64,000 nt of DNA from an uncultured Candidatus Saccharibacteria bacterium (GTDB taxonomy: Bacteria; Patescibacteriota; Minisyncoccia; Phycocordibacterales; UBA12088): positions 66,996 through 130,995 of the forward strand of contig CAZMLK010000002.1 in assembly GCA_964567265.1 (NCBI GenBank), read 5' to 3'. The notes under the pieces were generated by a model, which ran no database searches, was not told the DNA's origin, and saw only the letters and a list, made by a program, of their open reading frames with translations. The translations under genes and the position numbers were made by a program. The first letter of the stretch is position 1. Each line of letters starts with the position of its first letter. Positions 3,548 to 16,221 of this stretch are shown here, one piece after another.

Positions 3548-3624
3548 TACAGTATCTGAAAACTAGGAAAAATGCCCGCGGGTTCCTTTTGGGAGTCGGG
3601 GATAGTAAGAAATGCTTGAGGGAT

Positions 3625-3768
3625 GGAGGGAATCTCGAACCTTACAGGTTCGGTACGCCTTTTTAGTGGACCGGAGGGCTCGGTCCTTACAGGACCAGTA
3701 CACCTTGCGGACATTTTGTTTCGCAAGCTCACAAAATGATCTCGCAAGGTCTTCGAGCCCTCCACCGC
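3625..3768 (-). repeat. tRNA-3'-linked structured element, copy 1 (downstream of tRNA-Val; carries an extra tandem P3/P1 module)
   Basis: P1 5' strand GCGCGGTGGAGGGCTCGAA = reverse complement of tRNA-Val 3' end; P2 hairpin ACCTTGCG..CATTTTGT-loop-ACAAAATG..CGCAAGGT; GTGTACT; P3 GGTCC-TGTAA-GGACC; P1 3' strand GAGCCCTCC; see findings. Confidence 0.6.
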
Positions 3769-3792
3769 GCCACTCGTCGCTTCGCTCCTCCT

Positions 3793-3865
3793 GTGCGCGG
3801 TGGAGGGCTCGAACCCCCGACCTTCTCAGTGTAAATGAGTTGCTCTACCAACTGAGCTAACCGCG
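3793..3865 (-). tRNA. tRNA-Val (anticodon TAC), no encoded CCA
   Basis: cloverleaf read from minus strand: GCGCGGT-TA-GCTC-AGTTGGTA-GAGC-A-ACTCA-TTTACAC-TGAGA-AGGTC-GGGGG-TTCGAGC-CCTCC-ACCGCGC-A. Confidence 0.85.
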
Positions 3866-3906
3866 CATATCCTCCTTCTCAAATTTTCGCGGTCATTGGG
3901 TAATGG

Positions 3907-3938
3907 CGTGACCGCCTCTCCCAACTCAGCTAACCGCG
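3907..3938 (-). other. partial duplicate of the tRNA-Val 5' region (acceptor + D-arm fragment)
   Basis: caactcagctaaccgcgca here vs caactgagctaaccgcgca in the tRNA 42 nt away; tRNA remnant / pseudo-fragment. Confidence 0.45.
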
Positions 3939-4039
3939 CATTGAACTGACTATGCCAGAGAAGTGGCTTTTACTCAATGAGGCCAAAAAACAAAGAGGCC
4001 CCACTCAGGACCCCTTTTCACGAAACGTTTTGAACTTGC

Positions 4040-4603
4040 CTAGACAATCTCATCGATGAGGCCGAAATTAAGTGCTTCTTCGGCGGTCATGTACTTATCT
4101 CTGCCGCAAGCTTTTCGAATACGTTTCACCCCTTTACCAGCCCTCGCGCAAAGAATAGTGTATAAATGCGCCTGCTTCCGCTCGCCTGATTCTAAGAGTA
4201 GTTTCAGCTTCTTAGGATCCCGAAGAATGTCGATGCTTACTTTTTCTGTCGCGACATGATGGATGAGTATCGCCGAATGTATGGAACACTTTCGCACGTT
4301 ACACGCCTGCAGAACAATTGCTCCCATTGATGCTGCTTGCCCCAGCACCACGCCAGTAGTTTTCCCAGGATACAAGCGGAGCGCATCGTAAATGCTCAAA
4401 CCCGCATCAACATTGCCGCCGATAGACGAAATTTGGATAGTTATGTCGGGTGATCCTTTCGCACGGAGTCGGAGCAGGGCCTCACGGACATGATCCCACA
4501 TATCATCATCGACCTCGCCTGCGAGGTCGATGATGTTCTGTTCAATCAGACTCAGCGCCACATCATCAAGATGCTCACATTTCCACATTTGGAACGCCCC
4601 CAT
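4040..4603 (-). CDS. clpP: ClpP-family serine protease subunit (stand-alone, flanked by tRNA genes)
   Basis: 187 aa; ISSIGGNVDAGLSIYDAL, GQAASMGAIVL (catalytic Ser), HH...D typical ClpP triad context; no clpX adjacent. Confidence 0.75.
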   Translation of the reverse strand: MGAFQMWKCEHLDDVALSLIEQNIIDLAGEVDDDMWDHVREALLRLRAKGSPDITIQISSIGGNVDAGLSIYDALRLYPGKTTGVVLGQAASMGAIVLQACNVRKCSIHSAILIHHVATEKVSIDILRDPKKLKLLLESGERKQAHLYTILCARAGKGVKRIRKACGRDKYMTAEEALNFGLIDEIV

Positions 4604-4668
4604 GGAGTCTGAAGTTAGCCAATGGCTAGGCTAGTCGATTTAAAGGTGCGAGTCAAGGAAAGTACCCT

Positions 4669-4811
4669 GGCAGGAACTCGAAGCTTACAGCTTCAGTACA
4701 CCTTGCGGACATTTTGTTTCGCAAGCTCACAAAATGATCTCGCAAGGTCTTCGACTCCTCGCCGCAGTGTCCCCCGGACACTGCTCAGGGGCAAAAACGC
4801 TCCGCGTTTTG
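4669..4811 (-). repeat. tRNA-3'-linked structured element, copy 2 (downstream of tRNA-Arg-TCT)
   Basis: hairpin A CAGTGTCC-GGG-GGACACTG; P1 5' GCGAGGAGTCGAA = reverse complement of tRNA-Arg T-loop/stem; P2 identical to copy 1 over 55 nt; P3 GAAGC-TGTAA-GCTTC; P1 3' GAGTTCCT. Confidence 0.6.
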
Positions 4812-4883
4812 TGCCCCTGCGAGGAGTCGAACCTCGATCAACGCCTTAGAAGAGCGCTGCTCTATCCATTGAGCTACGGGGGC
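4812..4883 (-). tRNA. tRNA-Arg (anticodon TCT), no encoded CCA
   Basis: GCCCCCG-TA-GCTC-AATGGATA-GAGC-A-GCGCT-CTTCTAA-GGCGT-TGATC-CGAGG-TTCGACT-CCTCG-CAGGGGC-A; one C:A mismatch in acceptor stem. Confidence 0.8.
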
Positions 4884-4976
4884 AATGAAGCTCCGGGGGA
4901 GCTTCATTGCGAAGCGCCCTGGGGACTTGCAAGCAATGTATCACGGCGAAAGTCCCGGTCAATCCAAGTGGAGAAG

Positions 4977-5309
4977 TTAGCGCGCCGGCTCAGGCACGGA
5001 CGGAGGCGAGACTTTCAGCGTCTCGAAGCGGGCCCGCTTGGCCTCGAGCGCCGAGAGCGTCGCCTGCATCACGCCCGCATTCACCGCAGGCGTGATGGTA
5101 CCAGCATCCACGGCGGCGGATCCGTCTTCAGCGTTGGTACCGAGGAACAAGTAGACATGGTACGCGAGCGAGCCGGTGATGCAGAGGAGGAGGATCCCGA
5201 TCAGGATCGCGAAGTCACGGCTCGGATGACCGACCGCGCGGTCGGTGCTTCCGGCTTTTTTCTTGCCAAGCAGTTTGCCGAGCGATTTGATGTCGAATTG
5301 CATGTTCAT
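4977..5309 (-). CDS. hypothetical small membrane protein
   Basis: 110 aa ORF with one hydrophobic segment (FAILIGILLLCITGSLAYHVYLFL); sits upstream of pilMNO-like genes on same strand. Confidence 0.4.
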   Translation of the reverse strand: MNMQFDIKSLGKLLGKKKAGSTDRAVGHPSRDFAILIGILLLCITGSLAYHVYLFLGTNAEDGSAAVDAGTITPAVNAGVMQATLSALEAKRARFETLKVSPPSVPEPAR

Positions 5310-5324
5310 GGAAAATTGATTCGC

Positions 5325-5855
5325 TTAGTCCCTTCGCGCGACGCTGAAATCGAAGATGCCCTGCCAGTGCGCGCTCTCGCCGCCGACCTGCTCGAAGCGT
5401 GCGTGGCCGACCGTGACCACGAACGGCATCGTCTCGAGGAGCGAGAAGAGCTGGTACACGCCCTGCCAACCCCCTTCGGCGGATACCGAGAAGCGGAACG
5501 CGTCCTTCGCGTCCGGTCGCCCTGCCCCGTTATCAACCGATACCACCTTCACCGTCGTATTCGTCGGCACGCCCAAGCCTTCGATCTGCTCGAGGAATGC
5601 CACAAGGCCGTCGTCACTCAGGAACGCTTTCTCGAGCACGGCCCTCTGCGGTGCAAGCGTACGGAGAAGCGCGTCTGAGGCGGCTGCATTCTGGTCTGCC
5701 GCTGCTGCCGCGCGAAGCTCGACCGCGAGTGCCCTCGATTCCTCCCCGATCGAGATCACGCGATAGAAGAGATAGCCGTATGCAAGCGCGGCGATCAGGA
5801 ACACCCCGAACATGATGAGGACTGCGCGCAGGGTTTTTGGCATGCTCCGTTTCAT
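5325..5855 (-). CDS. type IV pilus assembly protein PilO-like
   Basis: 176 aa; N-terminal TM anchor then coiled-coil region; position directly after pilN-like gene with 4-nt overlap. Confidence 0.5.
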   Translation of the reverse strand: MKRSMPKTLRAVLIMFGVFLIAALAYGYLFYRVISIGEESRALAVELRAAAAADQNAAASDALLRTLAPQRAVLEKAFLSDDGLVAFLEQIEGLGVPTNTTVKVVSVDNGAGRPDAKDAFRFSVSAEGGWQGVYQLFSLLETMPFVVTVGHARFEQVGGESAHWQGIFDFSVARRD

Positions 5856-6403
5856 GGCTTTTTTGGTACCAACACCGTGAGTGTCAGGTTGTATGGAATA
5901 TTGTCGCTGTCTGCGAGATCAGACACCGGGAGGTCGACCTTCGAGAACAGGCCGGTGTCCTTGAGCGCGTTCGAGAACGCGACGAGGTTGGCGCGCCTGA
6001 GCGCGAGGCCTTGCACGTATACCGACGGCGCGCCGTCCGCCGCCGTCTGGTAGTCGAGCGTATTCACGACGATGCCCGATGTTTTCTTCGAGAGCACGAC
6101 GCCGAGGATATCTGAGGGATGGATGCTCGTATCCGCTGCCGATGCGCGCGCAAGCAGGCTCTTGATCGCCGCGAGATCAGCGGAGGCTTTCTTCCGCGCA
6201 TCGTGTTCCGGAGATGATTCGGCTGCTTGTTTGTCGTTAAGGAGCGCGGCATGTTTTGCTGATACCGATACGTACGTCGGGAATATGAGGAGTGCGCTCA
6301 CGCCCGCAAGAACGGCGAGCGCGCTTGCGGCAAGCACCGAGAGCCTGAGGAGATATTCCTGGCGCACCCGCTTCTTCGCGCTATCGGGGAGGAGGTTCAG
6401 CAT
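5852..6403 (-). CDS. type IV pilus assembly protein PilN-like
   Basis: 183 aa; N-terminal MLNLLPDSAKKR (INLLP-type PilN signature) followed by TM segment. Confidence 0.6.
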   Translation of the reverse strand: MLNLLPDSAKKRVRQEYLLRLSVLAASALAVLAGVSALLIFPTYVSVSAKHAALLNDKQAAESSPEHDARKKASADLAAIKSLLARASAADTSIHPSDILGVVLSKKTSGIVVNTLDYQTAADGAPSVYVQGLALRRANLVAFSNALKDTGLFSKVDLPVSDLADSDNIPYNLTLTVLVPKKP

Positions 6404-7446
6404 AGTGAATTTGCGTCAACGCTCCGGAGGGCGAGACCGAGCGCAGTCACGTACTGCACCGACTCGCGCGCAGGAACTACCGGCACGTACGCGCCCGGGA
6501 AGCGCACGTTCGTCCACACGTCTCCGCGGCCGACCGGAATATGGAGGGATGCCGAAAGATATTCCGGAATCCCGGCGACGTTCGCGTTGCCGCCGCAAAG
6601 GATGACGCGCTCCACTGTACTTCCCTTGTAGCCGTCGTGCATGGAGTGCTCCTTCCAGTAGCGTGAGTGCCGGAGGATCTCGTCGCGGAGGACCGACATG
6701 GTCGAGAGGAGCGCGTCGAAGACGACGCCGTTCCCCTTGATGAATCCTTTCTCCTGCTTCAATGCTTCCGCTTCCTCGAAGGTGATGTTGCCGACTTGGC
6801 GCTGGATCGCGCTCGTGAAGTCGTCGCCGCCGACATCCAAGGTGGCCGTGAACACGAGCTTGCCGGCGGCGACGATCGAGATCCCCGCCTTCGTCTTCCC
6901 CATGTCGACGATGAGCACCGTGCCGGCCTCACCGTACGGGACGAGCGCACGCGCGCTCGCCTCCCCTTCCATCTCCAAGGAAAGCGGCGTGAGGCCCGCG
7001 CTCCGAAATACTTCGAGATAGTCAGCGATAATCTTGCTCGGATACACGGCGATATTTATCTTCCGCGTTCCCGTTGGCGACGGCTCGCTCGGGAGGAATT
7101 CATAATCGAAAACCGACTCTGCAGGACTAAGTGGCACGTTCTCCTTCATCTGGAACTCGATCACGGTCCGGATCTGCTCCGGGGTCGCATCTTCCGGCAC
7201 GTCGGTCTGGAAAAGGTACGCATGCTCTTCAGGGAGTGACACATGCGCGAACTCGAAGCCTTCGGAGCGGCGCAGCTTTTTGAGGAACGCGCTGAACTGC
7301 GCCTTGTCGAGGATGGCGCTCGCGGACACGATGCCGGAAGGCAAAGAGGCCTTGCCGTACTTCTTGATGACGGTGCCGCTCGCGTCGGTCTCGAGGCTCA
7401 GGTATTTCACCATGTCTTCGGAAATATCGATGCCGACCGCAGGCAT
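6397..7446 (-). CDS. pilM: type IV pilus assembly protein PilM (actin-like ATPase fold)
   Basis: ORF 6397..7557; start set at internal MPAVGIDISEDMVKY (typical PilM N-terminus); actin-like motifs LIVDMGKTKAGISIV, DVGGDDFT. Confidence 0.7.
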   Translation of the reverse strand: MPAVGIDISEDMVKYLSLETDASGTVIKKYGKASLPSGIVSASAILDKAQFSAFLKKLRRSEGFEFAHVSLPEEHAYLFQTDVPEDATPEQIRTVIEFQMKENVPLSPAESVFDYEFLPSEPSPTGTRKINIAVYPSKIIADYLEVFRSAGLTPLSLEMEGEASARALVPYGEAGTVLIVDMGKTKAGISIVAAGKLVFTATLDVGGDDFTSAIQRQVGNITFEEAEALKQEKGFIKGNGVVFDALLSTMSVLRDEILRHSRYWKEHSMHDGYKGSTVERVILCGGNANVAGIPEYLSASLHIPVGRGDVWTNVRFPGAYVPVVPARESVQYVTALGLALRSVDANSLC

Positions 7447-7595
7447 ACGCAGAAAACGAGGAGGCGGAAAGAGCGCGAGTCCTTTTTCAAAACGCGAGCG
7501 CTGTTGCAGAGCTTTCGATTCCATAGAACAAGATATTCGTGCTTCAAAGTATAGCATGCAGGGTTCTCCGCTTTTTTATGCACAGCCGGAAGAAA

Positions 7596-7637
7596 AACAA
7601 AGCCGCCGCAGTCTTCGACTGCGGCGGCTTTGTTTTA
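7596..7637. terminator. bidirectional rho-independent terminator
   Basis: AGCCGCCGCAGTC-TTCG-ACTGCGGCGGCT flanked by A-run upstream and T-run downstream. Confidence 0.6.
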
Positions 7638-7642
7638 AATTC

Positions 7643-7978
7643 CTATCTAATGCGCGCGCCCGGCGTCATCGATGACGACGCCTCGAGGAGCGAGAACAAA
7701 TCCTCGCTCGACGCCGCCAGTATCATCCCGTTCGATTCAAGTCCTCGGATGACGCGCGGCTCCAAGTTCACGAGGAACGGGCACTTCTTCCCGACAAGCG
7801 TCTGGATGTCCTCGAAGAAGAGCCGGATGCCTGAGACGATCTGCCGATGTTCCGCCTCACCGAAATCAACCGTGAGCCGGAGGAGCTTGTCAGCGCCCTC
7901 GACGATCTCCACTGTTTTGATCTCCCCGATCGCGATATCGAGGAGCGCGAATGTATCAATTGAAACCCGTTCTTTCAT
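7643..7978 (-). CDS. tRNA-binding domain protein (CsaA/Trbp111-like)
   Basis: 111 aa; LLDIAIGEIKTVE...ADKLLRLTVDFGE...RQIVSGI pattern of the MetRS C-terminal / EMAP tRNA-binding fold. Confidence 0.7.
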   Translation of the reverse strand: MKERVSIDTFALLDIAIGEIKTVEIVEGADKLLRLTVDFGEAEHRQIVSGIRLFFEDIQTLVGKKCPFLVNLEPRVIRGLESNGMILAASSEDLFSLLEASSSMTPGARIR

Positions 7979-8369
7979 GTTGTTTCCTATCTAGATATCC
8001 CTGGAGTATAAGCGCGGCGGCCGATGCGTCAACGGGTCCCTTCGCGGCATCCTCCTCGCCGTGCTGGCGGCGCGCCTGCGCGCTCGTGAGGACTTCATTC
8101 TCGAAATGCACAAGGAGCTCGGTCGCCGCTTCAAGCTTCTCCTTGAATGCATGGATCGCGTCCATGATCTCGTTCTCCTTCCCTTTGAGGTCGAGTGATT
8201 CGCCGATGACGATTTCCCCAACCTCCTTCTCGCGGATGACGTCATTGATCTGAGAAAGCGCGTCCGACGCGTTGTCGATCACCTTTTCCGGAAAGGCGAA
8301 GGCGGCGTTCTCGTCGGAAACCGCGAGCCCGATCCGCTTGGTGCCATAGTCGATGCCGAGATACCGCAT
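7956..8369 (-). CDS. ruvX: Holliday junction resolvase-like protein YqgF/RuvX
   Basis: 137 aa; MRYLGIDYGTKRIGLAVSD N-terminus is the RuvX signature. Confidence 0.8.
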   Translation of the reverse strand: MRYLGIDYGTKRIGLAVSDENAAFAFPEKVIDNASDALSQINDVIREKEVGEIVIGESLDLKGKENEIMDAIHAFKEKLEAATELLVHFENEVLTSAQARRQHGEEDAAKGPVDASAAALILQGYLDRKQHERTGFN

Positions 8370-8539
8370 AGGTTACTTCAGGATCATGCTCGTGAGGTAC
8401 GGGATGCCGAGCGCGAGGACGCCGAGGAAGAAGGCGACGCTGAGGAGAAGGGCTGTTTTAAGGGTTTCTTTCATATTTTCGAGTACAGGAGTGGTATTGG
8501 ACAGGATACCACAGGGAACGCTCATGGGCGGAGTGGCTG

Positions 8540-8589
8540 TTGAAAAGCAGCAAAAAAGCGCATGCATGCGCTTTTTTGCTGCTTTTCAA
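8540..8589. terminator. perfect 25-bp-arm palindrome (bidirectional terminator)
   Basis: TTGAAAAGCAGCAAAAAAGCGCATG/CATGCGCTTTTTTGCTGCTTTTCAA exact inverted repeat with A/T runs on both sides. Confidence 0.6.
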
Positions 8590-8597
8590 AGCGCGGA

Positions 8598-9152
8598 TTA
8601 GCGCTTCTTCACCTCAAACGTGAACCGATACGAGCTTTCAGGAATCTCCTCCCCTGCTTTTGGTCCCGGAGTGACACTGATGAGGGTAACGGTGAAATCA
8701 CCGAAGACCTGCGGCTCGCCGAGCTTGAGCACATGCTCGCCATGCGCGACCGTGGTCGAGATTGCGGTCCTGACCTCGACCGTCCCCGCCCAGATGCACT
8801 GGACGCCTTCCGCGCAGCGGCTGTCAGAAACGAGCTTCCGCGGATTCACTGATACCGAAAGCCCGGTCGCGGTACCACCGAGATAGGTGGTGATGATTGA
8901 GGAAGTCGCATTCGCCGGCGGGCATGCAGCGAATTCGCAGGATGGGCCGGTGCGTCCCACCGACGAGCCGTCGGGGCAGATCTTGGCGTCCATGTTGCAG
9001 GCCTGGGGCTCGGTAGAGGTCGCCTCCGCGACCGGCACGGGATCGGGCGTATCCGCCTTGGTCGTGTCTATCTTCCCCGAAAAACTGAACCAAAACGCCG
9101 CTCCCACGAGGAGCACGGCTACCCACAGCATCAGGATCTTTTGGATGTTCAT
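8598..9152 (-). CDS. hypothetical secreted / membrane-anchored protein
   Basis: ORF 8598..9197; likely start MNIQKILMLWVAVLLVGAAFWF (signal anchor); Cys-rich extracellular region. Confidence 0.5.
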   Translation of the reverse strand: MNIQKILMLWVAVLLVGAAFWFSFSGKIDTTKADTPDPVPVAEATSTEPQACNMDAKICPDGSSVGRTGPSCEFAACPPANATSSIITTYLGGTATGLSVSVNPRKLVSDSRCAEGVQCIWAGTVEVRTAISTTVAHGEHVLKLGEPQVFGDFTVTLISVTPGPKAGEEIPESSYRFTFEVKKR

Positions 9153-9205
9153 TCTTATGTGGACGGATGGGAGGGGGTGGTCTTTCGGGGGGGGCAAAAA
9201 TGCAT

Positions 9206-9841
9206 CTACCGTGTAAGGAGTTTGTAATACTTCTGTGCTGAGTCTATGAATTCTCTCTCCGCGCTTTCATCGTTGGTGTATTTCTCTTCACCCCAGTATG
9301 TGTGGGATACGAGCTTGCCCTTTTGAAACGTGAAGGCGCCAGAGTAAACGGGTTTAGTCTGGGTGTAATCGGGAGAACCGTCATTCGAAGTGAAATAGTT
9401 CTCGACACCTGCATGAACAAAAATAATTTCTGATTTATTAAAATAATAAACTTCTGTAATGATCTCATATGACAGACCTACCTTAACTACAATCCTTCTA
9501 AGCTCATTGTCAACAAAATATCCTGTTAGATCCCCTCCACCATCGGTGGGGTATCCCAAAAATTCGTCCTGCGATAATGTTTTGGAAGTGTAGTTTTTTC
9601 TCGAATCTATTTCCCAATCAATCTGACGAACGTCGTTCGCAACCTCCTGATCAACGATGGGGTTCGGCGACTGGTATGTAGACACCTCAACAACTTTCGA
9701 ATAGTCGGAAAAAAACGCAACGTAAATACCGAGAGCGGCCACGAGGGCAAAAATCACTGCCAATCCTTTGTTGGGCATTAACGCCCAAAAATGGTTCCGA
9801 CGAGTGGTATCACCCCAAACTTTTTTAGAATTTCTAAACAT
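9206..9841 (-). CDS. hypothetical membrane-anchored protein
   Basis: 211 aa, N-terminal hydrophobic segment GLAVIFALVAALGIYVAFF; region visibly lower GC than surroundings. Confidence 0.5.
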   Translation of the reverse strand: MFRNSKKVWGDTTRRNHFWALMPNKGLAVIFALVAALGIYVAFFSDYSKVVEVSTYQSPNPIVDQEVANDVRQIDWEIDSRKNYTSKTLSQDEFLGYPTDGGGDLTGYFVDNELRRIVVKVGLSYEIITEVYYFNKSEIIFVHAGVENYFTSNDGSPDYTQTKPVYSGAFTFQKGKLVSHTYWGEEKYTNDESAEREFIDSAQKYYKLLTR

Positions 9842-9983
9842 GTGGCGTTTGAAAATGATTTCTTACTTTTTTGTAGATATCATGACTGTATGAACGACTG
9901 CGTGCAAGGATTCGGTCACCAGTCACTAACCATTTTGCTCCAAGTATTCGCAAAATGCTAAGTGCTCGCAACCTCGCCTCAAG

Positions 9984-10126: not shown

Positions 10127-10211
10127 CGGAGGGGGAGGGATTCGAACCCTCGGAACCTTGCGGCTCTCCTGTTTTCAAGACAGGTGCACTCGACCACTAT
10201 GCGACCCCTCC
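10127..10211 (-). tRNA. tRNA-Ser (anticodon TGA), type II long variable arm, G73 discriminator, no CCA
   Basis: GGAGGGG-TC-GCA..TGC-ACCTGT-CTTGAAA-ACAGG-long variable arm-GAGGG-TTCGAAT-CCCTC-CCCCTCC-G. Confidence 0.8.
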
Positions 10212-10310
10212 GTGGGGACTGCTGTGAAGACAGACTAACGGACGGAGGCCAAGTGCGCAACCGCTTCCAGCATTCTTGCACTCGCGGAGCCGATGCTATA
10301 GTAGGAGCAC

Positions 10311-10805
10311 ATGACCTTCTTCGAGCGGATCCAGCAGCGCGTGTGGCGATTCCTCTATCCCGTCTTCCCCTTCCTCGAGCATCATCTCCTCTTCCTCCAT
10401 TCGAAGAAGCGGCAGCAGTACCACATCGGTTGGCTCGCGAAGGGTCAGACTTTGGCCGGCCTCAAGGTCCATCTCTCCAAGGAGTGGGGCTTCGGCAACC
10501 ACTTCGTCGCCTGGGAGGATCCGGATCAGGTCTTGTCCTGGCGGAAACTCGAGAGCTTCGAGGAGCAGTACCATCTCCGCGTGTTCAATGACGGCGAGAT
10601 CCGCGGCCACTATGAGCGCACGCCCGAAGCCTCTCCGCTCGACCACCTCACCGAGACCGGCATGGAGCCGCGCGTCGACATGTTCTATAAATATCTTGGC
10701 CCCTTCCTCACGACCACCACCTATATCTCCAAGGTCGAGCCGGATACTTCCGTCCCAACACCGGACGCCGAAGTGACGTTCGACGGAACGAAGGCGGACG
10801 CATAG
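10311..10805 (+). CDS. hypothetical protein
   Basis: 164 aa ORF, no recognisable motifs. Confidence 0.4.
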   Translation: MTFFERIQQRVWRFLYPVFPFLEHHLLFLHSKKRQQYHIGWLAKGQTLAGLKVHLSKEWGFGNHFVAWEDPDQVLSWRKLESFEEQYHLRVFNDGEIRGHYERTPEASPLDHLTETGMEPRVDMFYKYLGPFLTTTTYISKVEPDTSVPTPDAEVTFDGTKADA

Positions 10806-10864
10806 GCACGCTTCGGTGTGGATGAAAAGCGCGCGTGGCGGCAGCGCACGCGTGGTAGACTATT

Positions 10865-11368
10865 TTGCATATGGCCGAGGTCCCGAATACCACGAAGCTT
10901 CCTGCATTCATGTGGCAAGCGCACGAGCATGAGTTCCACGAGCGGAGCCATGACTGGTATTGGGCGGTCGGTATCGTCGCGGTCTCGAGCGCGCTCGCGG
11001 CAGCCATCCTCGGGAACATCCTCTTCGGCCTCCTCATCATCATGGCGGCATTCATCCTCGCCCTCCGCGCGTCGAAGCAGCCGGACATGGTCTCGGTCGA
11101 GCTCAGCGAGCGCGGCATCCGGATCGACAAGACCCTGTATCCGTACCGCACGCTCGAGTCATTCTATGTGACGCACCCGGAGCCGGGCACCCGCATGGAG
11201 CCGAAACTCCTGGTGCAATCGAAGAAGCCCTTGGTTCCCCTCCTCATCGTCCCCTTCGCGTCCGACATCCATCCGGACATGATCCACGACTACCTCATCA
11301 AATACATCCCCGAAGAGGAGCACCGTGAGCCCTTGTCGCACCACCTCCTCGAGATGGTGGGCCTATAG
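10865..11368 (+). CDS. hypothetical membrane protein
   Basis: 167 aa ORF with two hydrophobic helices (WAVGIVAVSSALAAAILGNILFGLLIIMAAFILAL). Confidence 0.45.
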   Translation: MHMAEVPNTTKLPAFMWQAHEHEFHERSHDWYWAVGIVAVSSALAAAILGNILFGLLIIMAAFILALRASKQPDMVSVELSERGIRIDKTLYPYRTLESFYVTHPEPGTRMEPKLLVQSKKPLVPLLIVPFASDIHPDMIHDYLIKYIPEEEHREPLSHHLLEMVGL

Positions 11369-11483
11369 CAGGGAGTAGATTTTTGGCCAAAATCATTGCA
11401 CAGCTGGAAAAAGCTGCCCTTTCCTGCTACAGTGCGCTCTATAGATTTGTCACTTCGGGTATCCCATTTGGCTTTTTCTATAT

Positions 11484-11555
11484 GCTCTCGTAGTTCAATG
11501 GATAGAACGCGAGCTTGCGGAGCTCGTAATGTAGGTTCGATTCCTACCGGGAGCA
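11484..11555 (+). tRNA. tRNA-Arg (anticodon GCG as read), no CCA
   Basis: GCTCTCG-TA-GTTC-AATGGATA-GAAC-G-CGAGC-TTGCGGA-GCTCG-TAAT-GTAGG-TTCGATT-CCTAC-CGGGAGC-A. Confidence 0.75.
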
Positions 11556-11703
11556 CAAGTGAACGTAGTGAACGCCGGCCTCCCGGAGAAAGCGCCAGTG
11601 GCGCTTTCGGTAGGAATCGAAGACCTTTTCGAGGCTTGTGAGGAGCTCTGCTCCGAACAAACCGAAAAGGTGTACTGGTCCTGTAAGGACCGCGTTTCCT
11701 GAC
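11556..11703 (+). repeat. tRNA-3'-linked structured element, copy 5 (downstream of tRNA-Arg-GCG)
   Basis: shares GTGAACGTAGTGAACG direct repeat with copy 3; hairpin GAAAGCGCC-AGT-GGCGCTTTC; P1 5' GGTAGGAATCGAA = reverse complement of this tRNA's T-arm; P2 CCTTTTCG...CGAAAAGG; GTGTACT; P3 GGTCC-TGTAA-GGACC. Confidence 0.6.
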
Positions 11704-11709
11704 GTGAAG

Positions 11710-11750
11710 AAACGAAAACCCCCGGACTAACAGTCCGGGGGTTTTCGTTT
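11710..11750. terminator. perfect palindromic bidirectional terminator
   Basis: AAACGAAAACCCCCGGACT-AAC-AGTCCGGGGGTTTTCGTTT. Confidence 0.6.
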
Positions 11751-11831
11751 GGGGCTCCCCCTTGCCCCCCTCCCCAAGAACCTGTATGGTACAACCCAGG
11801 TTATTCATTCTGTCAACAGGAGTCAAAACGC

Positions 11832-12551
11832 ATGCAAGCAATCATCTTGGCAGCCGGCAAAGGGACACGGATGCGCCCCCTCACAAACGACATGCCGAAG
11901 CCTCTTATCGAGGTCAGTGGCACTCCCCTCTTGTCGCATATCCTCGACCAGCTCCCGCCCGCGATCACCGAGATCATTCTCGTCATCGATTACCTGGGCG
12001 AGATGATCGGCCACGAATACGGCTTCGAGTTCAAAGGGAAGCCCATCACGTATGTGTGGCAAATACCAAGCGGCAGCGGTACCTTTGGTGCCCTCAAAGC
12101 AGTAAAGGAACAGCTCGGCACAAAGCTCGACAGGAGGGTCCTCATCCTGAATGCGGACGATCTCCCCTGCGAACCGGATCTGAAGGCGCTGCTCAAGCAT
12201 CGTCTCGGCGTACTCGCGACGCCGCACAAGAACCCCGGCCAGTTTGGCGTCATCTCGCACGATGATCAGATGCGACTGATCGCAATCGATGAGCAGCCTG
12301 CCGAGCCGAAGAGCAATCTCGTGAACACGGGCATCTACGTCCTCATGACCGATGTGCTCGATCTCGAACAGTATGCGACCAGGCGAGGTGATGAACTCCT
12401 GCTCACGCCGGCCGTCACCGAACTTGCACAGCGGCACATCATCCACGTCGTTCCTGCAACGTTCTGGATTCCTGTCGGAACCCCGGAGGCCATTCTGGTT
12501 GCGGAAGCGGCTCTCAGAGAACATCCCGACTACGCGTACAGTCCAGAGTAG
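11832..12551 (+). CDS. sugar-1-phosphate nucleotidylyltransferase (NTP_transferase family)
   Basis: 239 aa; AIILAAGKGTRMRPLT canonical N-terminal motif of sugar nucleotidyltransferases. Confidence 0.8.
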   Translation: MQAIILAAGKGTRMRPLTNDMPKPLIEVSGTPLLSHILDQLPPAITEIILVIDYLGEMIGHEYGFEFKGKPITYVWQIPSGSGTFGALKAVKEQLGTKLDRRVLILNADDLPCEPDLKALLKHRLGVLATPHKNPGQFGVISHDDQMRLIAIDEQPAEPKSNLVNTGIYVLMTDVLDLEQYATRRGDELLLTPAVTELAQRHIIHVVPATFWIPVGTPEAILVAEAALREHPDYAYSPE

Positions 12552-12576
12552 GGACAGATTGAATCGAAACGAAAAA

Positions 12577-12615
12577 CCCCCGCGGCCACTTGTGGCCGCG
12601 GGGGATCTTCTTTTC
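12577..12615 (+). terminator. rho-independent terminator
   Basis: CCCCCGCGGCCAC-TT-GTGGCCGCGGGGG followed by ATCTTCTTTTC. Confidence 0.6.
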
Positions 12616-12630
12616 TAAACGCTATTCAAA

Positions 12631-12888
12631 TTACTTCTTGAGCATTGCGGCGAGGCGGGCCTTCTTGCGGGAAGCGGTGTTTGCTTTGATCAAACCTCCC
12701 TTCTTCGCCTTGTCGATGGCCTTGTAGGCCGCTCCGAGGACGGCAGCTGCCTCATCCTTCTTGCCTGCGAGTGCAAGCTTCTTGAACCCCTTGGTTGCGT
12801 CCTCAAGAGTGCTCTTGCGGCGCAAATTCACCACACGCTTCCTTGCGGAAACGCGGAGCGCTTTCTTTGCTGATGACGTGATTGGCAT
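12631..12888 (-). CDS. rpsT: 30S ribosomal protein S20
   Basis: 85-aa product from MPITSSAKKALRVSARKRVVNLRRKS...; basic, S20-like; longer 141-aa ORF rejected. Confidence 0.8.
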   Translation of the reverse strand: MPITSSAKKALRVSARKRVVNLRRKSTLEDATKGFKKLALAGKKDEAAAVLGAAYKAIDKAKKGGLIKANTASRKKARLAAMLKK

Positions 12889-13003
12889 GGCGAGCATAGT
12901 ACCACAGCATTCCAGAGAATGCCAATTCCGGGCCGTATTTCCATAAAAGTACCTGGCCGGCACCCGGCTCGCCGAAGCATCGGCTTCCGCGTATGATGAA
13001 GGC

Positions 13004-13570
13004 ATGATTGCAGAACTCAGGGGCACGGTCTCATCCATCCAGAAAGGCTCCCTCATCCTCGATGTGGCCGGTGTGGGCTACAAAGTGTACATGACGGAAG
13101 GGTCGCTCCTCACGCTCGCCGAGGGCGCGCCCGCAAAACTCGCCATCTATACGGTTGTGCGCGAGACCGCACTCGAACTCTTCGGCTTCGAGTCGCGTGC
13201 GGCGCAAAATCTCTTCGAGCTCCTGCTCGAAGTCCCCGGCATCGGACCGCGCTCTGCGCTCGGCATTCTCTCCTTGGCCGATGTACGCACCCTCGAAGGT
13301 GCGATTGCATCCGGCAACGCCGCCTACCTCACCCGCGTCTCAGGAATCGGCAAGAAGAGTGCCGAGAAGATCGTGATCACACTCCAGGACAAAATCCAGA
13401 AGCAGGACGGCATGGACGGCGCGTCCGAAGAGGGTGATGCGCTCGAAGCCCTTCATGCGCTCGGATACTCTCCGAAGGAGGCGCGCGAGGCCCTCCAGAA
13501 TGTGCCCCGCGATGTCACCGACGCGGGCGCGCGCATCCGCGAAGCGCTCAAGATACTCGGCCGTACCTAA
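13004..13570 (+). CDS. ruvA: Holliday junction DNA helicase subunit RuvA
   Basis: 188 aa; MIAELRGTV...LDVAGVGYKV... and helix-hairpin-helix region LLEVPGIGPRSALGIL. Confidence 0.85.
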   Translation: MIAELRGTVSSIQKGSLILDVAGVGYKVYMTEGSLLTLAEGAPAKLAIYTVVRETALELFGFESRAAQNLFELLLEVPGIGPRSALGILSLADVRTLEGAIASGNAAYLTRVSGIGKKSAEKIVITLQDKIQKQDGMDGASEEGDALEALHALGYSPKEAREALQNVPRDVTDAGARIREALKILGRT

Positions 13571-13582
13571 GTTCCACGAACC

Positions 13583-14860
13583 ATGGACACCATCCTCAGA
13601 AAAATCAAACACCTCATCCCGAAGAGCATCTTCCGCTCGGTCCAGCCCTTTTATCACCAGTCGCTCGCGCTCATAAGCGCGGTTTGGTACGCGTTCCCCT
13701 CGAACAAGATCAAGGTCATCGGGGTCACCGGCACCAAGGGCAAGTCGACAACCGTGGAGCTCATCCGTTCCATCCTCGACGAGGCCGGCTTCATGACCGC
13801 ATCCTCCGGCACCATCCGCTTCACGATCGGGGACACCGAACGCAGGAATCTCTACAAGATGTCGATGCCGGGGCGCTTCTTCATGCAGAAATTCCTCTCG
13901 GAGGCGTATGATGCCGGCTGCCAGTACGCGGTCATCGAGATGACCTCTGAGGGCGCGAAGCTCTCCCGCCACAAGCACATCACGCTTGATGCGCTCATCT
14001 TCACCAACATCTCGCCCGAGCACATCGAGTCCCATGGCTCGTTCGAGAAGTATCTCGCCGCGAAGCTCCTCCTCCGCGATTCGCTTGAGGAGTCGGAGAA
14101 ATCACCGAAGTGGATCGTCGCGAATCGGGATGATGCGCATGGCGCCGAATTCCTCGACGTCAAAAGCGCAACCAAGGTCCCCTATTCCCTGAAGGATGCC
14201 GAGCCGTACGCTCTCAATGACCGGGGCATCCTCTTCACCTTCGAAGGCGTCAGCATCCACTCGCCACTGCTTGGTCTTTTCAATCTCTACAATCTGCTCG
14301 CGGCAGCGAGCTTCGCGCGGACGCAAGGCATCTCCGTCGAGGTCATCAAGCGCGCGCTTGAGAAGACATCACTTATCCGCGGCCGCGTCGAGAAGATCGA
14401 GGCCGGGCAGAAATTCACGGCGGTCGTCGACTACGCGCATACGCCTGACTCTTTGGAAAAACTGTACCAGGCATTCCCGGGCAAGAATCTGATCTGCGTG
14501 CTCGGCAACACCGGCGGCGGCCGTGACACCTGGAAGCGTCCTGAGATGGCGAGAATCGCAGAGAAGTACTGCGAGACCGTCATCCTCACGAATGAAGACC
14601 CGTATGACGAGGATCCGGAATCTATCCTTCTTGAAATGTCGCGAGGCATGGAAACGAAGCAGCCACGCATCATCCTCGACCGCCGCGAGGCGATCCGGAC
14701 CGCGCTTTCGCTCGCGGACGACCGGGACGTGGTCCTCATCTCAGGCAAAGGCACCGACCCTTTCATCATGGGACCCGAGGGATCGAAGACGCCGTGGAGC
14801 GATGCAACGGTCGTCCGCGAAGAGTTGGAGGCGCTAGGGAGCGCACAGGCCGAACGGTAG
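13583..14860 (+). CDS. Mur ligase family protein (MurE/MurF-like peptidoglycan precursor ligase)
   Basis: 425 aa; ATP-binding loop IGVTGTKGKSTT, central and C-terminal Mur ligase domains. Confidence 0.75.
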   Translation: MDTILRKIKHLIPKSIFRSVQPFYHQSLALISAVWYAFPSNKIKVIGVTGTKGKSTTVELIRSILDEAGFMTASSGTIRFTIGDTERRNLYKMSMPGRFFMQKFLSEAYDAGCQYAVIEMTSEGAKLSRHKHITLDALIFTNISPEHIESHGSFEKYLAAKLLLRDSLEESEKSPKWIVANRDDAHGAEFLDVKSATKVPYSLKDAEPYALNDRGILFTFEGVSIHSPLLGLFNLYNLLAAASFARTQGISVEVIKRALEKTSLIRGRVEKIEAGQKFTAVVDYAHTPDSLEKLYQAFPGKNLICVLGNTGGGRDTWKRPEMARIAEKYCETVILTNEDPYDEDPESILLEMSRGMETKQPRIILDRREAIRTALSLADDRDVVLISGKGTDPFIMGPEGSKTPWSDATVVREELEALGSAQAER

Positions 14861-14895
14861 AGACGCGTACGGTATAAAATAATCGCGCGTCCGTA

Positions 14896-15384
14896 CTACC
14901 GTCCCAGCATGCGGAAGAGCGCGATGCCGCCCGCAACCGAGACATTGAGTGATTCCTTCTTGCCGCTCATCGGGATCGAAGCGACGTGATCCGAGAGCGC
15001 AAGGAGCGCCTCCGGCACGCCGATGACCTCGTTCCCGAGCACGAACGCGACTGCACCCTCCGGAGCAAGGGTTTTATAGTCAACGGCGCTTGGCGATTGC
15101 TCGATCGCGATGATCTCGACACCGCGCGATTTCAAATCAATGAGAAGGACGGCGACACCTTCTACCGCTTCCCACGGAACCATATCTTCCGCACCAAGGG
15201 CCGCCTTCGCGACGTCTTTCCGTTTCCGGCCGAAGCGATCCAGAGGCTGCGGCGAATACCCCGTGAGATAGAGCTTCGTGATTCCTGCCGCGTCCGCCGT
15301 ACGGAACAAGGCGCCGACGTTCTCGGCGCTCCGGATATCGTGGAGGATGAGGATGGCTTCGCGGCTGCCGGTCTCTTTTTTCAC
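14896..15384 (-). CDS. SpoU/TrmH-family RNA 2'-O-methyltransferase
   Basis: 162 aa; LHDIRSAENVGALFRTADAAG and ...ESLNVSVAGGIALF SPOUT motifs. Confidence 0.8.
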   Translation of the reverse strand: MKKETGSREAILILHDIRSAENVGALFRTADAAGITKLYLTGYSPQPLDRFGRKRKDVAKAALGAEDMVPWEAVEGVAVLLIDLKSRGVEIIAIEQSPSAVDYKTLAPEGAVAFVLGNEVIGVPEALLALSDHVASIPMSGKKESLNVSVAGGIALFRMLGR

Positions 15385-15450
15385 TTCGCCATGCTATCAC
15401 AAGCCTGTCCCTATTGGTTCAGGGACAGAGCCGCTGATATACTGAGCGCC

Positions 15451-15843
15451 ATGTTCAACCCATTCCCGTCCTTGCTCGCGCTCGGTCTCTTCGGTCCATT
15501 CATGCTCCGGATCGCAGCAGGAGCGGTCATACTCCTCTTCGCATTCCGCGTCTGGAAAAGCATGCGCCGGCATCCCAAAGCAGGCGAGGCCTCGCGTACC
15601 AGCGTCTTTCACTGGTACCTCCTCGCCGTCGAGGCATGCATCGGCATCTCTCTCATCTTCGGGTTCCTGACCCAGATCGGCGCGCTCATCGGCATCTACC
15701 TTATCGGACACCTTCTCTACCTCAAGCGGAAGCAGAATCGCGCCGCATCCGAATCGCGCCTTGTATACGGACTTCTACTCATCATCATGCTTTCGCTGCT
15801 CGTCTCCGGCGCGGGCGCGTTCGCCTTCGATCTGCCGCTCTAG
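15451..15843 (+). CDS. hypothetical polytopic membrane protein
   Basis: start chosen at MFNPFPSLLALGLF (ATG 15451) to avoid overlap with convergent SpoU gene; about four hydrophobic helices. Confidence 0.5.
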   Translation: MFNPFPSLLALGLFGPFMLRIAAGAVILLFAFRVWKSMRRHPKAGEASRTSVFHWYLLAVEACIGISLIFGFLTQIGALIGIYLIGHLLYLKRKQNRAASESRLVYGLLLIIMLSLLVSGAGAFAFDLPL

Positions 15844-15931
15844 CCACGACCCTCTCCATCTCCGAAATGTTGTGTTATATTGGCCCCACGTGGCCGTTTC
15901 TTTCGTGGCCAGAAGCATCAAAAAAACATAT

Positions 15932-16004
15932 CCGCCCATAGCTCAGTCGGTAGAGCGGCTCCCTTTTAAGGAGATGGTCGCAGGTTCGAGTCCTGCTGGG
16001 CGGA
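15932..16004 (+). tRNA. tRNA-Lys (anticodon TTT), C1-G72 first pair, no CCA
   Basis: CCGCCCA-TA-GCTC-AGTCGGTA-GAGC-G-GCTCC-CTTTTAA-GGAGA-TGGTC-GCAGG-TTCGAGT-CCTGC-TGGGCGG-A. Confidence 0.8.
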
Positions 16005-16152
16005 CAAAAATTGCGAAGCATTTTTGGCCGCCCAGAGCATTGTCCGGGGGACAATGCGTCAGGACTCGAAAACCTTGTGAGATTTTTTAGCGAATGTGTT
16101 CGCATAAAAAATCCGCAAGGTGTACTGAAGCCGTAAGCTTCGAGACCTTGGG
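16005..16152 (+). repeat. tRNA-3'-linked structured element, copy 4 (downstream of tRNA-Lys)
   Basis: hairpin A GCATTGTCC-GGG-GGACAATGC; P1 5' CAGGACTCGAA = reverse complement of tRNA-Lys T-arm; P2 ACCTTGTG..ATTTTTTA-GCGAATGTGTTCGC-ATAAAAAAT..CGCAAGGT; GTGTACT; P3 GAAGC-CGTAA-GCTTC; P1 3' GAGACCT. Confidence 0.6.
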
Positions 16153-16174
16153 TCAAAGGACTTGTGCCCGACCC

Positions 16175-16213: not shown

Positions 16214-16221
16214 GTCCTGCT

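Follow-up and report, generated by a model that had tools for sequence, protein, structure and literature searches.

Integrative elements that target tRNA genes, and the integrase-less CIMEs, insert at the 3' end of the tRNA, leave the tRNA intact and are flanked by direct repeats of its 3' part. Bacterial MITEs and the REP/REPIN/BIME, Correia, RPE and bcr1-type repeats are small, protein-less, intergenic, strongly folding and multi-copy, often lie behind genes and form within-genome families. SINE/LINE-type target-primed reverse transcription yields variable target duplications, truncated copies that keep their 3' end and copies with an inverted 5' part, and its elements have a conserved stem-loop at the 3' end and are linked to tRNA genes. 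IS200/IS605 elements and their miniature derivatives carry strand-specific hairpins and an internal segment that pairs with the flanking target. Group I introns of Patescibacterial tRNA genes are structured RNAs with internal guide pairing to the flank (PMC13011429). CRISPR arrays and casposons grow by polar repeated insertion beside a fixed 'leader', with duplication of a 25-45-nt unit, and casposons use gene 3' ends.

The genomes of Patescibacteria are tiny and streamlined, and repeats and mobile DNA are thought to be scarce in them. Here we describe a previously undescribed family of small, highly structured repeats that is common in Patescibacteria behind tRNA and other genes, each copy carrying one inverted and one direct copy of the 3' end of its host gene. 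It shares with each of the above systems the features just named, and differs from all of them in others.

Integrative elements and CIMEs span kilobases, whereas the element measures 100-190 nt, has no integrase, carries an extra inverted copy of the target and a conserved folded core, and belongs to a family found on many isotypes and at protein-gene ends. An integrative element with its own integrase and one target per integrase was rejected because no integrase recurs within 2.5 kb of 118 loci and the targets comprise 19 isotypes, rplK and ftsZ. MITE- and REP-type repeats have the same terminal repeats in every copy and short, fixed target duplications; in this family each locus has arms copied from its own target, and the duplication varies from 15 to 46 nt. 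A MITE was rejected on these grounds and for want of terminal inverted repeats common to the copies, since the arms change from locus to locus and correspond to the end of the local gene; the original prediction had also set the element apart from a fixed-sequence MITE. In contrast to SINE/LINE-type elements, the host is bacterial, 3'-truncated copies also occur, no partner reverse transcriptase was identified within 2.5 kb of the loci and an inverted target copy, which is not a SINE feature, is present at the 5' end; no A-rich tail was seen in the element sequences. IS200/IS605 guides have about 4 nt and insertion occurs beside a target of 4-5 nt without duplication, whereas the pairing here extends over 12-25 nt; a single-stranded DNA element of this type was rejected because of the long duplications and because TnpA is not linked within 2.5 kb of 118 loci. 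Unlike the group I introns, the element is located beyond the mature tRNA, is much too short, lacks a group I core (no Rfam match) and requires no splicing. Unlike in CRISPR arrays and casposons, the inserts represent one conserved folded family and not captured spacers, and no Cas1 is linked.

Results

Elements behind the tRNA genes of the window

The window, i.e. the whole 64-kb stretch of DNA that was analysed, contains exactly five tRNA genes according to ARAGORN and Rfam, at the positions originally predicted, and each of them is indeed followed on its own strand by one element. The motif AAGGTGTACTG occurs five times in the 64 kb (0.29 expected; 0/100 shuffles reach five), always 40-90 nt downstream of a tRNA gene and on the tRNA strand. 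The core has the order J12-P2-GUGUACU-P3 with a YGUAA loop, GUGUACU being J23, and is confined in the window to the five tRNA sites and one truncated remnant. A covariance model of the core, which had been proposed as a check, retrieved from the window only the five copies (62-80 bits) and a partial second module at 3635-3663 (23 bits). The features are listed below; X' is the 5' arm, X_down the 3' strand of P1, and H0 a hairpin.

3793-3866, minus strand: tRNA-Val(TAC), target of copy 1, with X_up as the final 20 nt
3752-3770, minus strand: X' of copy 1 (GCGCGGTGGAGGGCTCGAA), an uninterrupted, exact reverse complement of the T-loop and of the 3' strands of T-stem and acceptor
3680-3755, minus strand: core of copy 1, with J12 GAAGA, P2, J23 GUGUACU, P3 GGUCC/GGACC and loop UGUAA; 80.1 bits
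3665-3681, minus strand: X_down of copy 1, a decayed direct copy of the tRNA-Val 3' part
3621-3664, minus strand: older, 5'-truncated copy behind copy 1; covariance-model score 23.1 bits
4811-4883, minus strand: tRNA-Arg(TCT), target of copy 2
4750-4810, minus strand: 5' part of copy 2, with terminator-like hairpin (4793-4810), acceptor complement (4786-4793), H0 hairpin (4764-4784) and X' (4750-4762)
4665-4753, minus strand: core and X_down of copy 2, P3 GAAGC/GCUUC; 78.8 bits
10126-10211, minus strand: tRNA-Ser(TGA), target of copy 3
9983-10124, minus strand: copy 3, with GTGAACGTAGTGAACG (10109-10124), H0 and X' (10064-10098), core (9990-10067), P3 and X_down (9983-10006); 77.9 bits
11484-11556, plus strand: tRNA-Arg(GCG), target of copy 4
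11559-11703, plus strand: copy 4, with GTGAACGTAGTGAACG (11559-11574), acceptor complement (11580-11586), H0 (11589-11607), X' (11609-11621), core (11618-11693) and X_down (to 11703); 61.7 bits
15932-16005, plus strand: tRNA-Lys(TTT), target of copy 5
16006-16154, plus strand: copy 5, with terminator-like hairpin (16006-16025), acceptor complement (16026-16035), H0 (16037-16057), X' (16059-16070), core (16067-16143) and X_down (to 16154); 74.4 bits

Copy 1 has no H0 hairpin and carries the motif GAGCGAAGCGA in its spacer (3771-3792), and an intrinsic terminator (11715-11750) lies 3' of copy 4. Two details of the original prediction had to be reassigned: the GCAnTGTCC hairpin, ascribed to copies 2, 3 and 4, is located in the Arg-TCT, Ser and Lys copies, and the direct repeat ascribed to copies 3 and 5 is GTGAACGTAGTGAACG in the Ser and Arg-GCG copies. 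The second tandem P3/P1 module noted at copy 1 turned out to be the older copy at 3621-3664, which retains the 3' end of P2, CGUACC and P3 (GAACC/GGUUC), together with another decayed copy of the 3' part of tRNA-Val.

Fold and covariation of the core

A three-way junction was obtained for all five window copies in both minimum free energy and centroid folds (z = -3.9 to -5.7), and P2 and P3 are present in them as first drawn, with compensatory variants. Covariation was confirmed on 113 homologues: pairing holds in 91% of the cells (73% in shuffles; 28-50% in slid controls), and 260 cells carry double changes, compared with 83 in shuffles. P3 shows four pair types at three positions, and J12, J23 and the loop contain invariant bases. 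The tRNA-sense strand is favoured, with a ratio of G-U to A-C of 22:4 in P3, and this (top) strand folds more stably in 93 of 121 copies. P2 and P3 thus exhibit compensatory changes beyond relatedness on one strand, as is characteristic of a structured cis-regulatory or functional RNA. The claim that covariation across the copies reflects a selected structure holds for P2 and P3; for P1 it is not independent evidence of selection because each arm is copied from the local target.

Arms derived from the target gene

In the window, X' is an exact reverse complement, 11-19 nt long, of the T-loop, T-stem and acceptor 3' strand of the cognate tRNA. For the 5' strands of P1, the predicted exact complementarity was found at 12/12 positions for Val, Arg-TCT, Ser and Arg-GCG, and at 11/12 for Lys. 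Four of the window copies have a second segment, 5' of H0, that is complementary to the acceptor 3' strand, so that the complement covers the tRNA from the T-loop to the discriminator. X' remains Watson-Crick-complementary to the 3' strand also at positions that form G-U pairs in the tRNA helix, and was thus templated from the 3' strand. It takes in bases of the trailer, and a CCA complement is absent; tRNAs lacking any X' are followed by an ordinary terminator only.

The 3' strands of P1 are, as proposed, diverged direct copies of the tRNA 3' part (4-6 mismatches in 14), and in all five window copies X_up and X_down form direct repeats of this part that flank the insert. X_down is an exact 14-mer in 16/70 copies. 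The mismatches in X' and X_down show no clear G-U bias (17 vs 15; 25 vs 17). In some copies (L038, L110) the arms match each other and X' is imperfect, and in others the reverse is true.

Distribution beyond the window

The core was found in at least 118 further loci, examined as 8-kb stretches and almost all from Patescibacteria (by record title, 93/118 belong to Patescibacteria lineages and 25/118 are 'bacterium' MAGs). Nineteen tRNA isotypes have a core behind them, and its orientation agrees with that of the tRNA in a ratio of 56:1. The idea of a tRNA-specific device is not supported: only 61 of 143 copies lie behind a tRNA gene and 82 (57%) do not, and at the related loci roughly one tRNA in two has no family-1 core. 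The other sites are behind rplK or ftsZ, stand-alone or inside larger composites; the rplK and ftsZ copies have the same layout, with arms made from the 3' ends of these genes. A second core family and the composites share the target-tailored layout.

With Rfam 15, whose families include ribozymes, T-box, riboswitches, tmRNA, Y RNA, group I/II introns and sRNAs, only tRNA passes the gathering threshold in the window and 12 related loci, and even at E<=5 the core is overlapped only by weak chance matches (positions 3400-16400); an sX4 match (33.8 bits, threshold 70) covers tRNA-Ser. No paper describing the core was found in the literature.

Flanking repeats, nesting and truncation

Exact direct repeats flank the elements of L059 (46 nt), L038 (35 nt) and L094 (26 nt), and the length of the flanking repeats varies across copies from 15 to 46 nt. 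Nested tandem arrays occur, with four units in L033; in L020 the proximal unit has an X_down that is matched by the X' of the distal one. Truncated remnants lie directly behind a tRNA 3' end in the window (3621-3664), L119 and L076. Four or five copies are 5'-truncated, a weak signature because 3'-truncated copies are also present (L034), and one copy (L111) has an inverted 5' part. An intrinsic terminator is often situated between the gene and the element.

The P2 interiors are homogenised within genomes, with a similarity of 0.635 within and 0.558 between genomes (0/2000 permutations) and of just 0.574 when copies behind one isotype are compared across genomes. Among the genes within 2.5 kb of the 118 loci, none for a transposase, reverse transcriptase, integrase or HUH protein recurs, and the recurrent neighbouring protein families at the related loci are housekeeping genes only. 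With just 57% identity in ClpP, the closest relative of the window offers no orthologous pair of filled and empty sites.

Discussion

The explanation that fits best, and to which we would give about an even chance, is that a non-autonomous element, spreading by copy-and-paste or in some other duplicative way, has given rise to the five copies; in Patescibacteria it would colonise the 3' flank of tRNA genes and of some other genes and duplicate the 3' end of its target. Among the roles first considered, a tRNA-targeting miniature mobile element comes closest to the evidence. The constant part is a folded, gene-sense module composed of an optional H0, J12 (GA/AAGA), P2, GUGUACU and P3 with its YGUAA loop, and the variable arms would be products of insertion and not designs for tRNA. 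The last 15-45 nt of the target would be duplicated directly behind the element as X_down, like a target-site duplication, and an inverted copy, X', would be placed ahead of the core, starting right behind the terminator hairpin of the gene, and X' and X_down would then close the junction as P1. New copies would enter beside the functional gene end and push older copies downstream, and modules would be exchanged among the copies of one genome. We infer from these patterns that the element moves, that its intermediate is RNA or single-stranded DNA, and that an enzyme is involved. A mechanism might be target-primed, template-switching synthesis on single-stranded target DNA, with fold-back copying generating X' and the conserved J23/P3 module serving as a cis signal for a putative unlinked enzyme. 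It should be noted that in most copies H0 lies between two target-derived segments, a placement that simple fold-back copying does not explain. Further points that weigh against this reading are that none of the enzyme genes sought recurs within 2.5 kb of the 118 loci, that X' is imperfect in some copies whose arms match each other, that 3'-truncated copies occur, and that the mismatches in the arms have no clear G-U bias.

More tentatively, the family could represent a novel type of mobile element in prokaryotes, in which a folded module without protein genes is inserted along with a direct and an inverted copy of its target, with each copy base-paired to its own site, and is mobilised in trans by a putative Patescibacteria enzyme, possibly a reverse transcriptase or an enzyme acting on single-stranded DNA, which would read GUGUACU/YGUAA. 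The arms might even act as programmable guides that choose the next target.

If the element is mobile, a new insertion chemistry would be implied, in which the target is duplicated in both orientations with no linked gene needed, and this might point the way to a new targeting enzyme. As a host RNA, it would be a 3'-end module that is widespread yet unannotated among the tRNAs and core mRNAs of a major lineage of bacteria. Together with at least one sister, the family may follow a substantial fraction of Patescibacteria tRNA genes and some core genes. Either way it provides a ready marker for genome annotation, and its tRNA-like fragments can mislead predictors of tRNAs and genomic islands.

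Such a host-serving role is somewhat unlikely. Placed where highly expressed transcripts end, a cis-acting RNA module would act in termination, 3'-end protection or processing, with X' pairing either with the upstream RNA end or with X_down as a switch or read-through fail-safe, and selection would keep the arms matched. The strong covariation, the invariant junction bases and the preference for the sense strand described above would be expected, and several copies have terminators behind them. The same rplK-rplA site is occupied in five genomes, with arms that follow each genome's own sequence, and in L078 (Trp) the acceptor complement departs from perfection only by C-to-U changes, which retain G-U pairing. 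In the syntenic pair L028/L102 the element is 98% identical and the flanking genes 80-86%, a pattern compatible both with purifying selection on a functional RNA and with recent copying. However, a terminator often separates gene and element, 19 of the 47 copies next to a CDS run antisense to the gene upstream of them, roughly half the tRNAs of carrier loci have no family-1 core, and similarity groups by genome and not by target; tandem arrays, truncated remnants and exact repeats of 26-46 nt that include a terminator are unexpected for a selected switch. The proposed role in 3' maturation of the tRNA is argued against by the terminator that often intervenes and by a complement that lacks CCA and reaches into the genomic trailer. 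A processing signal of the tRNA 3' trailer was rejected because of this terminator and the missing CCA complement and because 57% of the copies are not tRNA-linked.

Duplicative copying also has to be weighed against a miniature integrative element, in our view an improbable alternative, whose unit would consist of tRNA 3' part, terminator, X' and core. Recombination in the 3' end of the tRNA, driven by a tyrosine recombinase acting in trans or, following uptake of DNA, by RecA, would integrate it and supply a replacement 3' end as genomic islands do. This would account for the direct repeats of the tRNA 3' end around the insert, for the units of L033, L030 and L078, which each have their own, different terminator, and for an X' that is usually perfect to the proximal functional copy while X_down may differ like a foreign allele (L068, L020). 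On the other hand, no integrase is linked, the units have only 140-190 bp, both repeats of L110 and L038 are of the resident type although X' is not, and the inverted copy has no role in such a model. Moreover, a single core family occupies 19 isotypes and protein genes, a range that is not known for any site-specific integrase.

A ribozyme or guide RNA acting on tRNA is very improbable. Its X' and the 5' strand of P3 would bind the T-arm to the two sides of C56/G57, and cutting, ligation or splinting of the tRNA 3' part would take place at the junction, for which X_down would be a built-in substrate or a spare part. Two binding arms around a conserved hairpin and junction do recall trans-acting small ribozymes and guide RNAs, and J12, J23 and the loop contain invariant bases, but the P3 5' strand has drifted with compensation so that the GGUUC match is lost in most copies, the same core serves non-tRNA targets, Rfam ribozyme models are unmatched even at E<=5, and the putative reaction site has no unpaired nucleotide.

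Within the window, J12, P2 and J23 are identical between copies 1 and 2, which differ in their arms and P3, and the H0 of copy 5 is identical to that of copy 3.

Elements behind the tRNA genes of the window

ARAGORN and Rfam agreed on five tRNA genes, each of which is followed by one copy of the element (copies 1 to 5):

3793-3866, (-) strand, tRNA-Val-TAC
4811-4883, (-) strand, tRNA-Arg-TCT
10126-10211, (-) strand, tRNA-Ser-TGA
11484-11556, (+) strand, tRNA-Arg-GCG
15932-16005, (+) strand, tRNA-Lys-TTT

Five occurrences of the 11-mer AAGGTGTACTG were counted in the 64-kb window, compared with 0.29 expected, and all five sites lie on the strand of the tRNA, 40-90 nt downstream of one of these genes. 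A covariance model (R1) was built on the family-1 core, which consists of J12, the P2 hairpin, J23 (GUGUACU) and P3 with its YGUAA loop. It scored the five tRNA-linked copies at 62-80 bits and, apart from a partial copy at 3635-3663, matched nothing else in the whole window. Both lines of evidence thus bear out the original prediction that a common layout is present behind all tRNAs of the window (5/5). The 5' strands quoted there are indeed the exact reverse complement of the tRNA from T54 on (12/12 in four copies, 11/12 in the Lys copy), and the strand following P3 is, as claimed, a direct though decayed copy of this tRNA segment. ViennaRNA predicted the proposed three-way junction for all five copies (z-scores -3.9 to -5.7).

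In the following, X_up is the target gene's own 3' end, X' the inverted copy in front of the core and X_down the direct copy behind it; pairing of X' with X_down forms P1, the helix that closes the junction. In the Val copy the tRNA complement is unbroken over 19 nt. In four copies the acceptor 3' strand has a complement of its own, a further 7-10 nt that had been overlooked, located 5' of the optional GC-rich hairpin H0, so that the tRNA complement spans the T-loop to the discriminator with H0 interrupting it. Between the tRNA and the acceptor complement of the Arg-TCT and Lys copies, a terminator-like hairpin forms the apex.

The protein genes of the window have housekeeping functions (UPP synthase, ClpP, PilM, sugar nucleotidyltransferase, Mur ligase, DNA polymerase III delta). 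A 24-nt near-copy of the tRNA-Val 5' end (GCGCGGTTAGCTGAGTTGGGAGAG; 3916-3939(-), 22/24 identical) precedes the genuine gene by about 50 nt and is followed by a GCGGTCA...TGACCGC hairpin. A perfect 14-bp palindrome (CATCATCGACCTCGCCTGCGAGGTCGATGATG) at 4504-4535, within the ClpP coding region, was flagged as terminator-like. Strong intrinsic terminators are located just past copy 4 on the strand of the element (11715-11750(+)) and just past copy 5 on the opposite strand (16189-16214(-)), where it serves a convergent gene. The spacer motif GTGAACGTAGTGAACG is found at 10109-10124(-) and 11559-11574(+); together with its variants GAGCGAAGCGA and GAACGAAGTGAA it directly follows tRNAs in many genomes and also occupies the P2 apex in many loci. 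It holds C-GNA-G mini-hairpins, for example GCGAAGC, which are unusually stable both as DNA and as RNA.

Distribution and targets

The element is a genuine feature that is statistically well secured and widely distributed. When one genome of each species was scanned with the pattern CCTT-N25-55-AAGGTGTACTGNNNNYGTAAG, at least 119 loci were obtained (handles of the type L001 denote these loci outside the window). Among the matches listed, 93 loci carry Patescibacterial names (Parcubacteria/Paceibacteria, Kaiser-, Zambryski-, Taylor- and Nomurabacteria, Minisyncoccia, and MAGs labelled Saccharibacteria), and 25 stem from MAGs labelled 'bacterium'. The match in a Desulfovibrionaceae genome (L009) was rejected as a chance match, as were four viral-contig matches to the J23-P3 pattern, which have neither a P2 nor a P3 stem. 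Rfam 15 contained no family for the element of the window at gathering scores or at E<=5, in agreement with the earlier statement that it could not be matched to any known RNA family.

In the window and the loci among the matches listed, 143 R1 copies were found, 61 of which lie 20-100 nt behind a same-strand tRNA, representing 19 isotypes, with a ratio of co-oriented to oppositely oriented copies of 56:1. In the same set, 71 tRNAs with enough downstream sequence had no R1 match. Other copies directly follow rplK (in five genomes) or ftsZ, and their arms consist of the final codons of these genes with the stop codon; others occupy intergenic sites, where 19/47 run antisense to the gene upstream. 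Long closing helices of local sequence are found in stand-alone copies, for example 31 bp in L027, and 17-19 bp in L026, L077, L084 and L109. The layout is the same in every class: the gene end X, a loop or terminator, X', the core, and X again. The tRNA-centred reading of the original prediction was therefore only partly right: the arms are tailored to the tRNA, but many copies lie behind rplK, behind ftsZ or in intergenic sites, and the element is not specific to tRNA genes.

Selection on the core structure and strand of folding

Covariation of the core exceeds that of column shuffles, which confirms that the structure is under selection. In 113 distinct copies, 91% of the cells of the P2 base and P3 are in standard pairs, compared with 73% in the shuffles, and 260 double-sided changes were counted, compared with 83; none of 500 shuffles reached the observed value for either pairing or double changes. 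When the partner columns were slid by 1-3 positions as a control, pairing fell to 28-50%. P3 exhibits four pair types at each of three positions. It should be noted that the search pattern itself fixed CCUU/AAGG, GUGUACUG and GUAAG, and thus their invariance is partly due to ascertainment; copies matched by the model only include flipped P2 bases (GGUUG/CAACC, AGUCU/AGACU) and UGUACC.

Mismatches in P3 are G-T in 22 cases and A-C in 4, and P2 folds better on the tRNA-sense strand in 93/121 copies; together, these biases identify the sense strand as the folded molecule. Folding of the sense strand is equally true of RNA and of single-stranded DNA.

Origin of the arms

A perfect 12-nt complement of the tRNA's own T-loop and T-stem was found downstream of 43/129 tRNAs, and of 62/129 when one mismatch was allowed, whereas a control that paired tRNAs with other loci gave 5/129 matches. 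X' complements the 3' strand in Watson-Crick fashion, also at positions that are G-U pairs in the tRNA helix: the T-stem of tRNA-Val reads GGGGG in the tRNA and GGAGG in X', and the G2-U71 pair of the tRNA-Glu in L022 provides a second example. X' takes in trailer bases and never a CCA complement. These features indicate that X' was templated from the 3' strand of the gene and was neither copied from the tRNA 5' strands nor selected against the mature tRNA. Accordingly, a tandem duplication of the tRNA's own 5' strands was rejected as the source of the 5' part, and a primer-binding site for mature tRNA was rejected because the CCA complement is missing and the complementarity runs on into the genomic trailer. 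tRNAs without the element are followed by a conventional terminator only, and thus X' does not normally belong to these loci.

Among 70 tRNA-linked copies, X_down is an exact 14-mer in 16 and carries no more than two mismatches in 30. Its generation by snap-back copying of X' was discarded, because the duplicated terminator of L059 retains its loop orientation and is thus a direct repeat. In the Glu, His and rplK sets, the arms, H0, P2 and P3 differ between genomes and yet match internally, which could be due to coevolution in place or to repeated re-insertion.

A subfamily (L022, L036, L098, L070, L023, L018, L010, L046, L099, L103, L117) has an extra small hairpin (GCG-UAAU/UACU-CGC) between the post-P3 TCGAU and the copy of the T-stem 3' strand; in this subfamily X_down has a perfectly preserved acceptor and T-stem portion.

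Signs of copying

Repeats, arrays, truncations and module sharing are signs of copying rather than of static descent. Exact flanking repeats comprise 46 nt in L059, which extend from the T-stem across the acceptor up to the last base of the terminator T-run, and 35 nt of the ftsZ end in L038; in L094, a hairpin of 25-26 nt is present three times and separates a family-2 core (see below) from a family-1 core. L033 contains an array of four units, each with a tRNA 3' part, its own terminator, X' and the core. The tRNA in front of it (2660-2990(-)) has an insertion of about 200 nt in the anticodon loop and was missed by ARAGORN and the Rfam tRNA model. The insertion is probably a group I intron of the type reported for Patescibacterial tRNA-Asp/Asn, although no intron model passed gathering. 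In L020, the proximal X' matches the live tRNA and the distal X' matches the proximal X_down.

At the Val locus of the window, a full copy is followed by an older, 5'-truncated one. Truncated copies directly after the tRNA end (L119, L076) retain the P2 3' end, J23, P3 and X_down, while the 5' part is inverted in L111 and J23 and P3 are absent from one copy (L034). J12-P2-J23 (62 nt) is identical in window copies 1 and 2, which differ in their arms and P3, copies 3 and 5 have a common H0, and the P3 types cut across both groupings. The identity of the P2 interior is 0.635 within and 0.558 between genomes (0/2000 permutations), and only 0.574 for the same tRNA isotype across genomes; for 12/58 copies the nearest neighbour is from the same genome, compared with 1.6% expected.

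Mechanism and alternative explanations

We favour, at about an even chance, a non-autonomous duplicative element, the constant folded module of which would be the cis signal for an unlinked enzyme. Insertion would occur just past the 3' end of a gene and leave its terminal 15-45 nt on both sides, as X_up and X_down, and the inverted copy X' would be laid down from the terminator hairpin onward. Fold-back synthesis on a single-stranded target overhang, stopping where the duplex resumes, is a plausible route, which would explain why X' starts after the terminator, why it ends at the start of the direct repeat, and why it would at first be a perfect complement. P1 would then be an automatic by-product of insertion, later only loosely maintained. 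Simple fold-back synthesis does not account for the position of H0 between two target-derived segments. The variable duplications, 5' truncations, conserved 3' module and highly transcribed targets speak for an RNA intermediate; the sense-strand hairpins, the co-orientation with tRNAs and the C-GNA-G mini-hairpins at the P2 apex and in spacers speak for a single-stranded DNA intermediate.

Several observations argue against the favoured reading, among them the position of H0 and the Glu, His and rplK sets described above. Clustering of 1804 ORFs within 2.5 kb of the copies revealed no linked enzyme gene but only housekeeping families, recurrently NusG, L11, L1, FtsZ, EF-G and similar. A pair of filled and empty sites, sought via close relatives of the window, was not obtained: exact-protein look-ups gave no match, and the nearest ClpP is 57% identical. 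In the syntenic pair L028/L102 (element +/-600 nt), the element of about 110 nt has changes at two loop positions (98% identity), compared with 80-86% identity of the flanking genes and an unalignable adjacent spacer; conservation sets in at GAAGCGACGGGTGGGGGTGAAG, about 35 nt upstream of H0. Strong purifying selection and recent homogenisation fit this pattern equally well. Transition-bias tests for RNA-level selection on the mismatches of X' and X_down revealed no significant wobble bias.

The main alternative is a 3'-end RNA module that would serve the host through alternative pairing of X'; we regard this explanation as possible though unlikely. A mini integrative unit driven by a recombinase or RecA appears decidedly improbable. 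Both explanations are compatible with a duplicative element, as mobile elements can undergo domestication. That the element is a ribozyme or guide directed at tRNAs is very hard to credit.

Comparison with known systems

The element resembles tRNA-targeting islands in its repeats of the tRNA 3' end, MITEs and REPINs in size, fold and copy number, SINEs in its variable duplications, IS200/IS605 in the pairing of an internal segment with the flank, group I introns in occurring in the same phylum and in guide-like pairing, and CRISPR arrays and casposons in polar insertion and the duplication of a long unit. Nevertheless, for each compared system, tRNA-targeting islands included, at least one defining feature is missing from the element where one could be tested. 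Hammerhead, twister, hatchet, pistol, HDV and group I ribozymes were rejected as identities because the lengths and sequences of the junction strands do not fit and no model matches. The structure of the element is unlike any described bacterial repeat or RNA family. A full-text literature search revealed no description of it, and the one related paper deals with group I introns that lie within tRNA genes of Patescibacteria (PMC13011429).

A second family and composite elements

Many tRNAs without an R1 match are followed by a perfect X' and then a different core, designated family 2, with the layout X'-GAAAG-CCGGAGC...GCGAGGCGG-GGUCGCG-A/T hairpin-GUGACC-X. The plan of tailored X'...X is the same, and the core looks unrelated to that of family 1. 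Rfam has no family for family 2 or for composites of both. Family-2 loci downstream of tRNAs are:

L022, 2560-2780, (-) strand
L047, L053, L073, L078, L081
L086, L091, L062, L007, L038

Some GGUGAG-H0-CGCAAGA copies are family-1 cores nested in family-2 elements, in the 3' stem region of the latter:

L095, 6078-6290, (-) strand
L073, L055, L052, L072, L040
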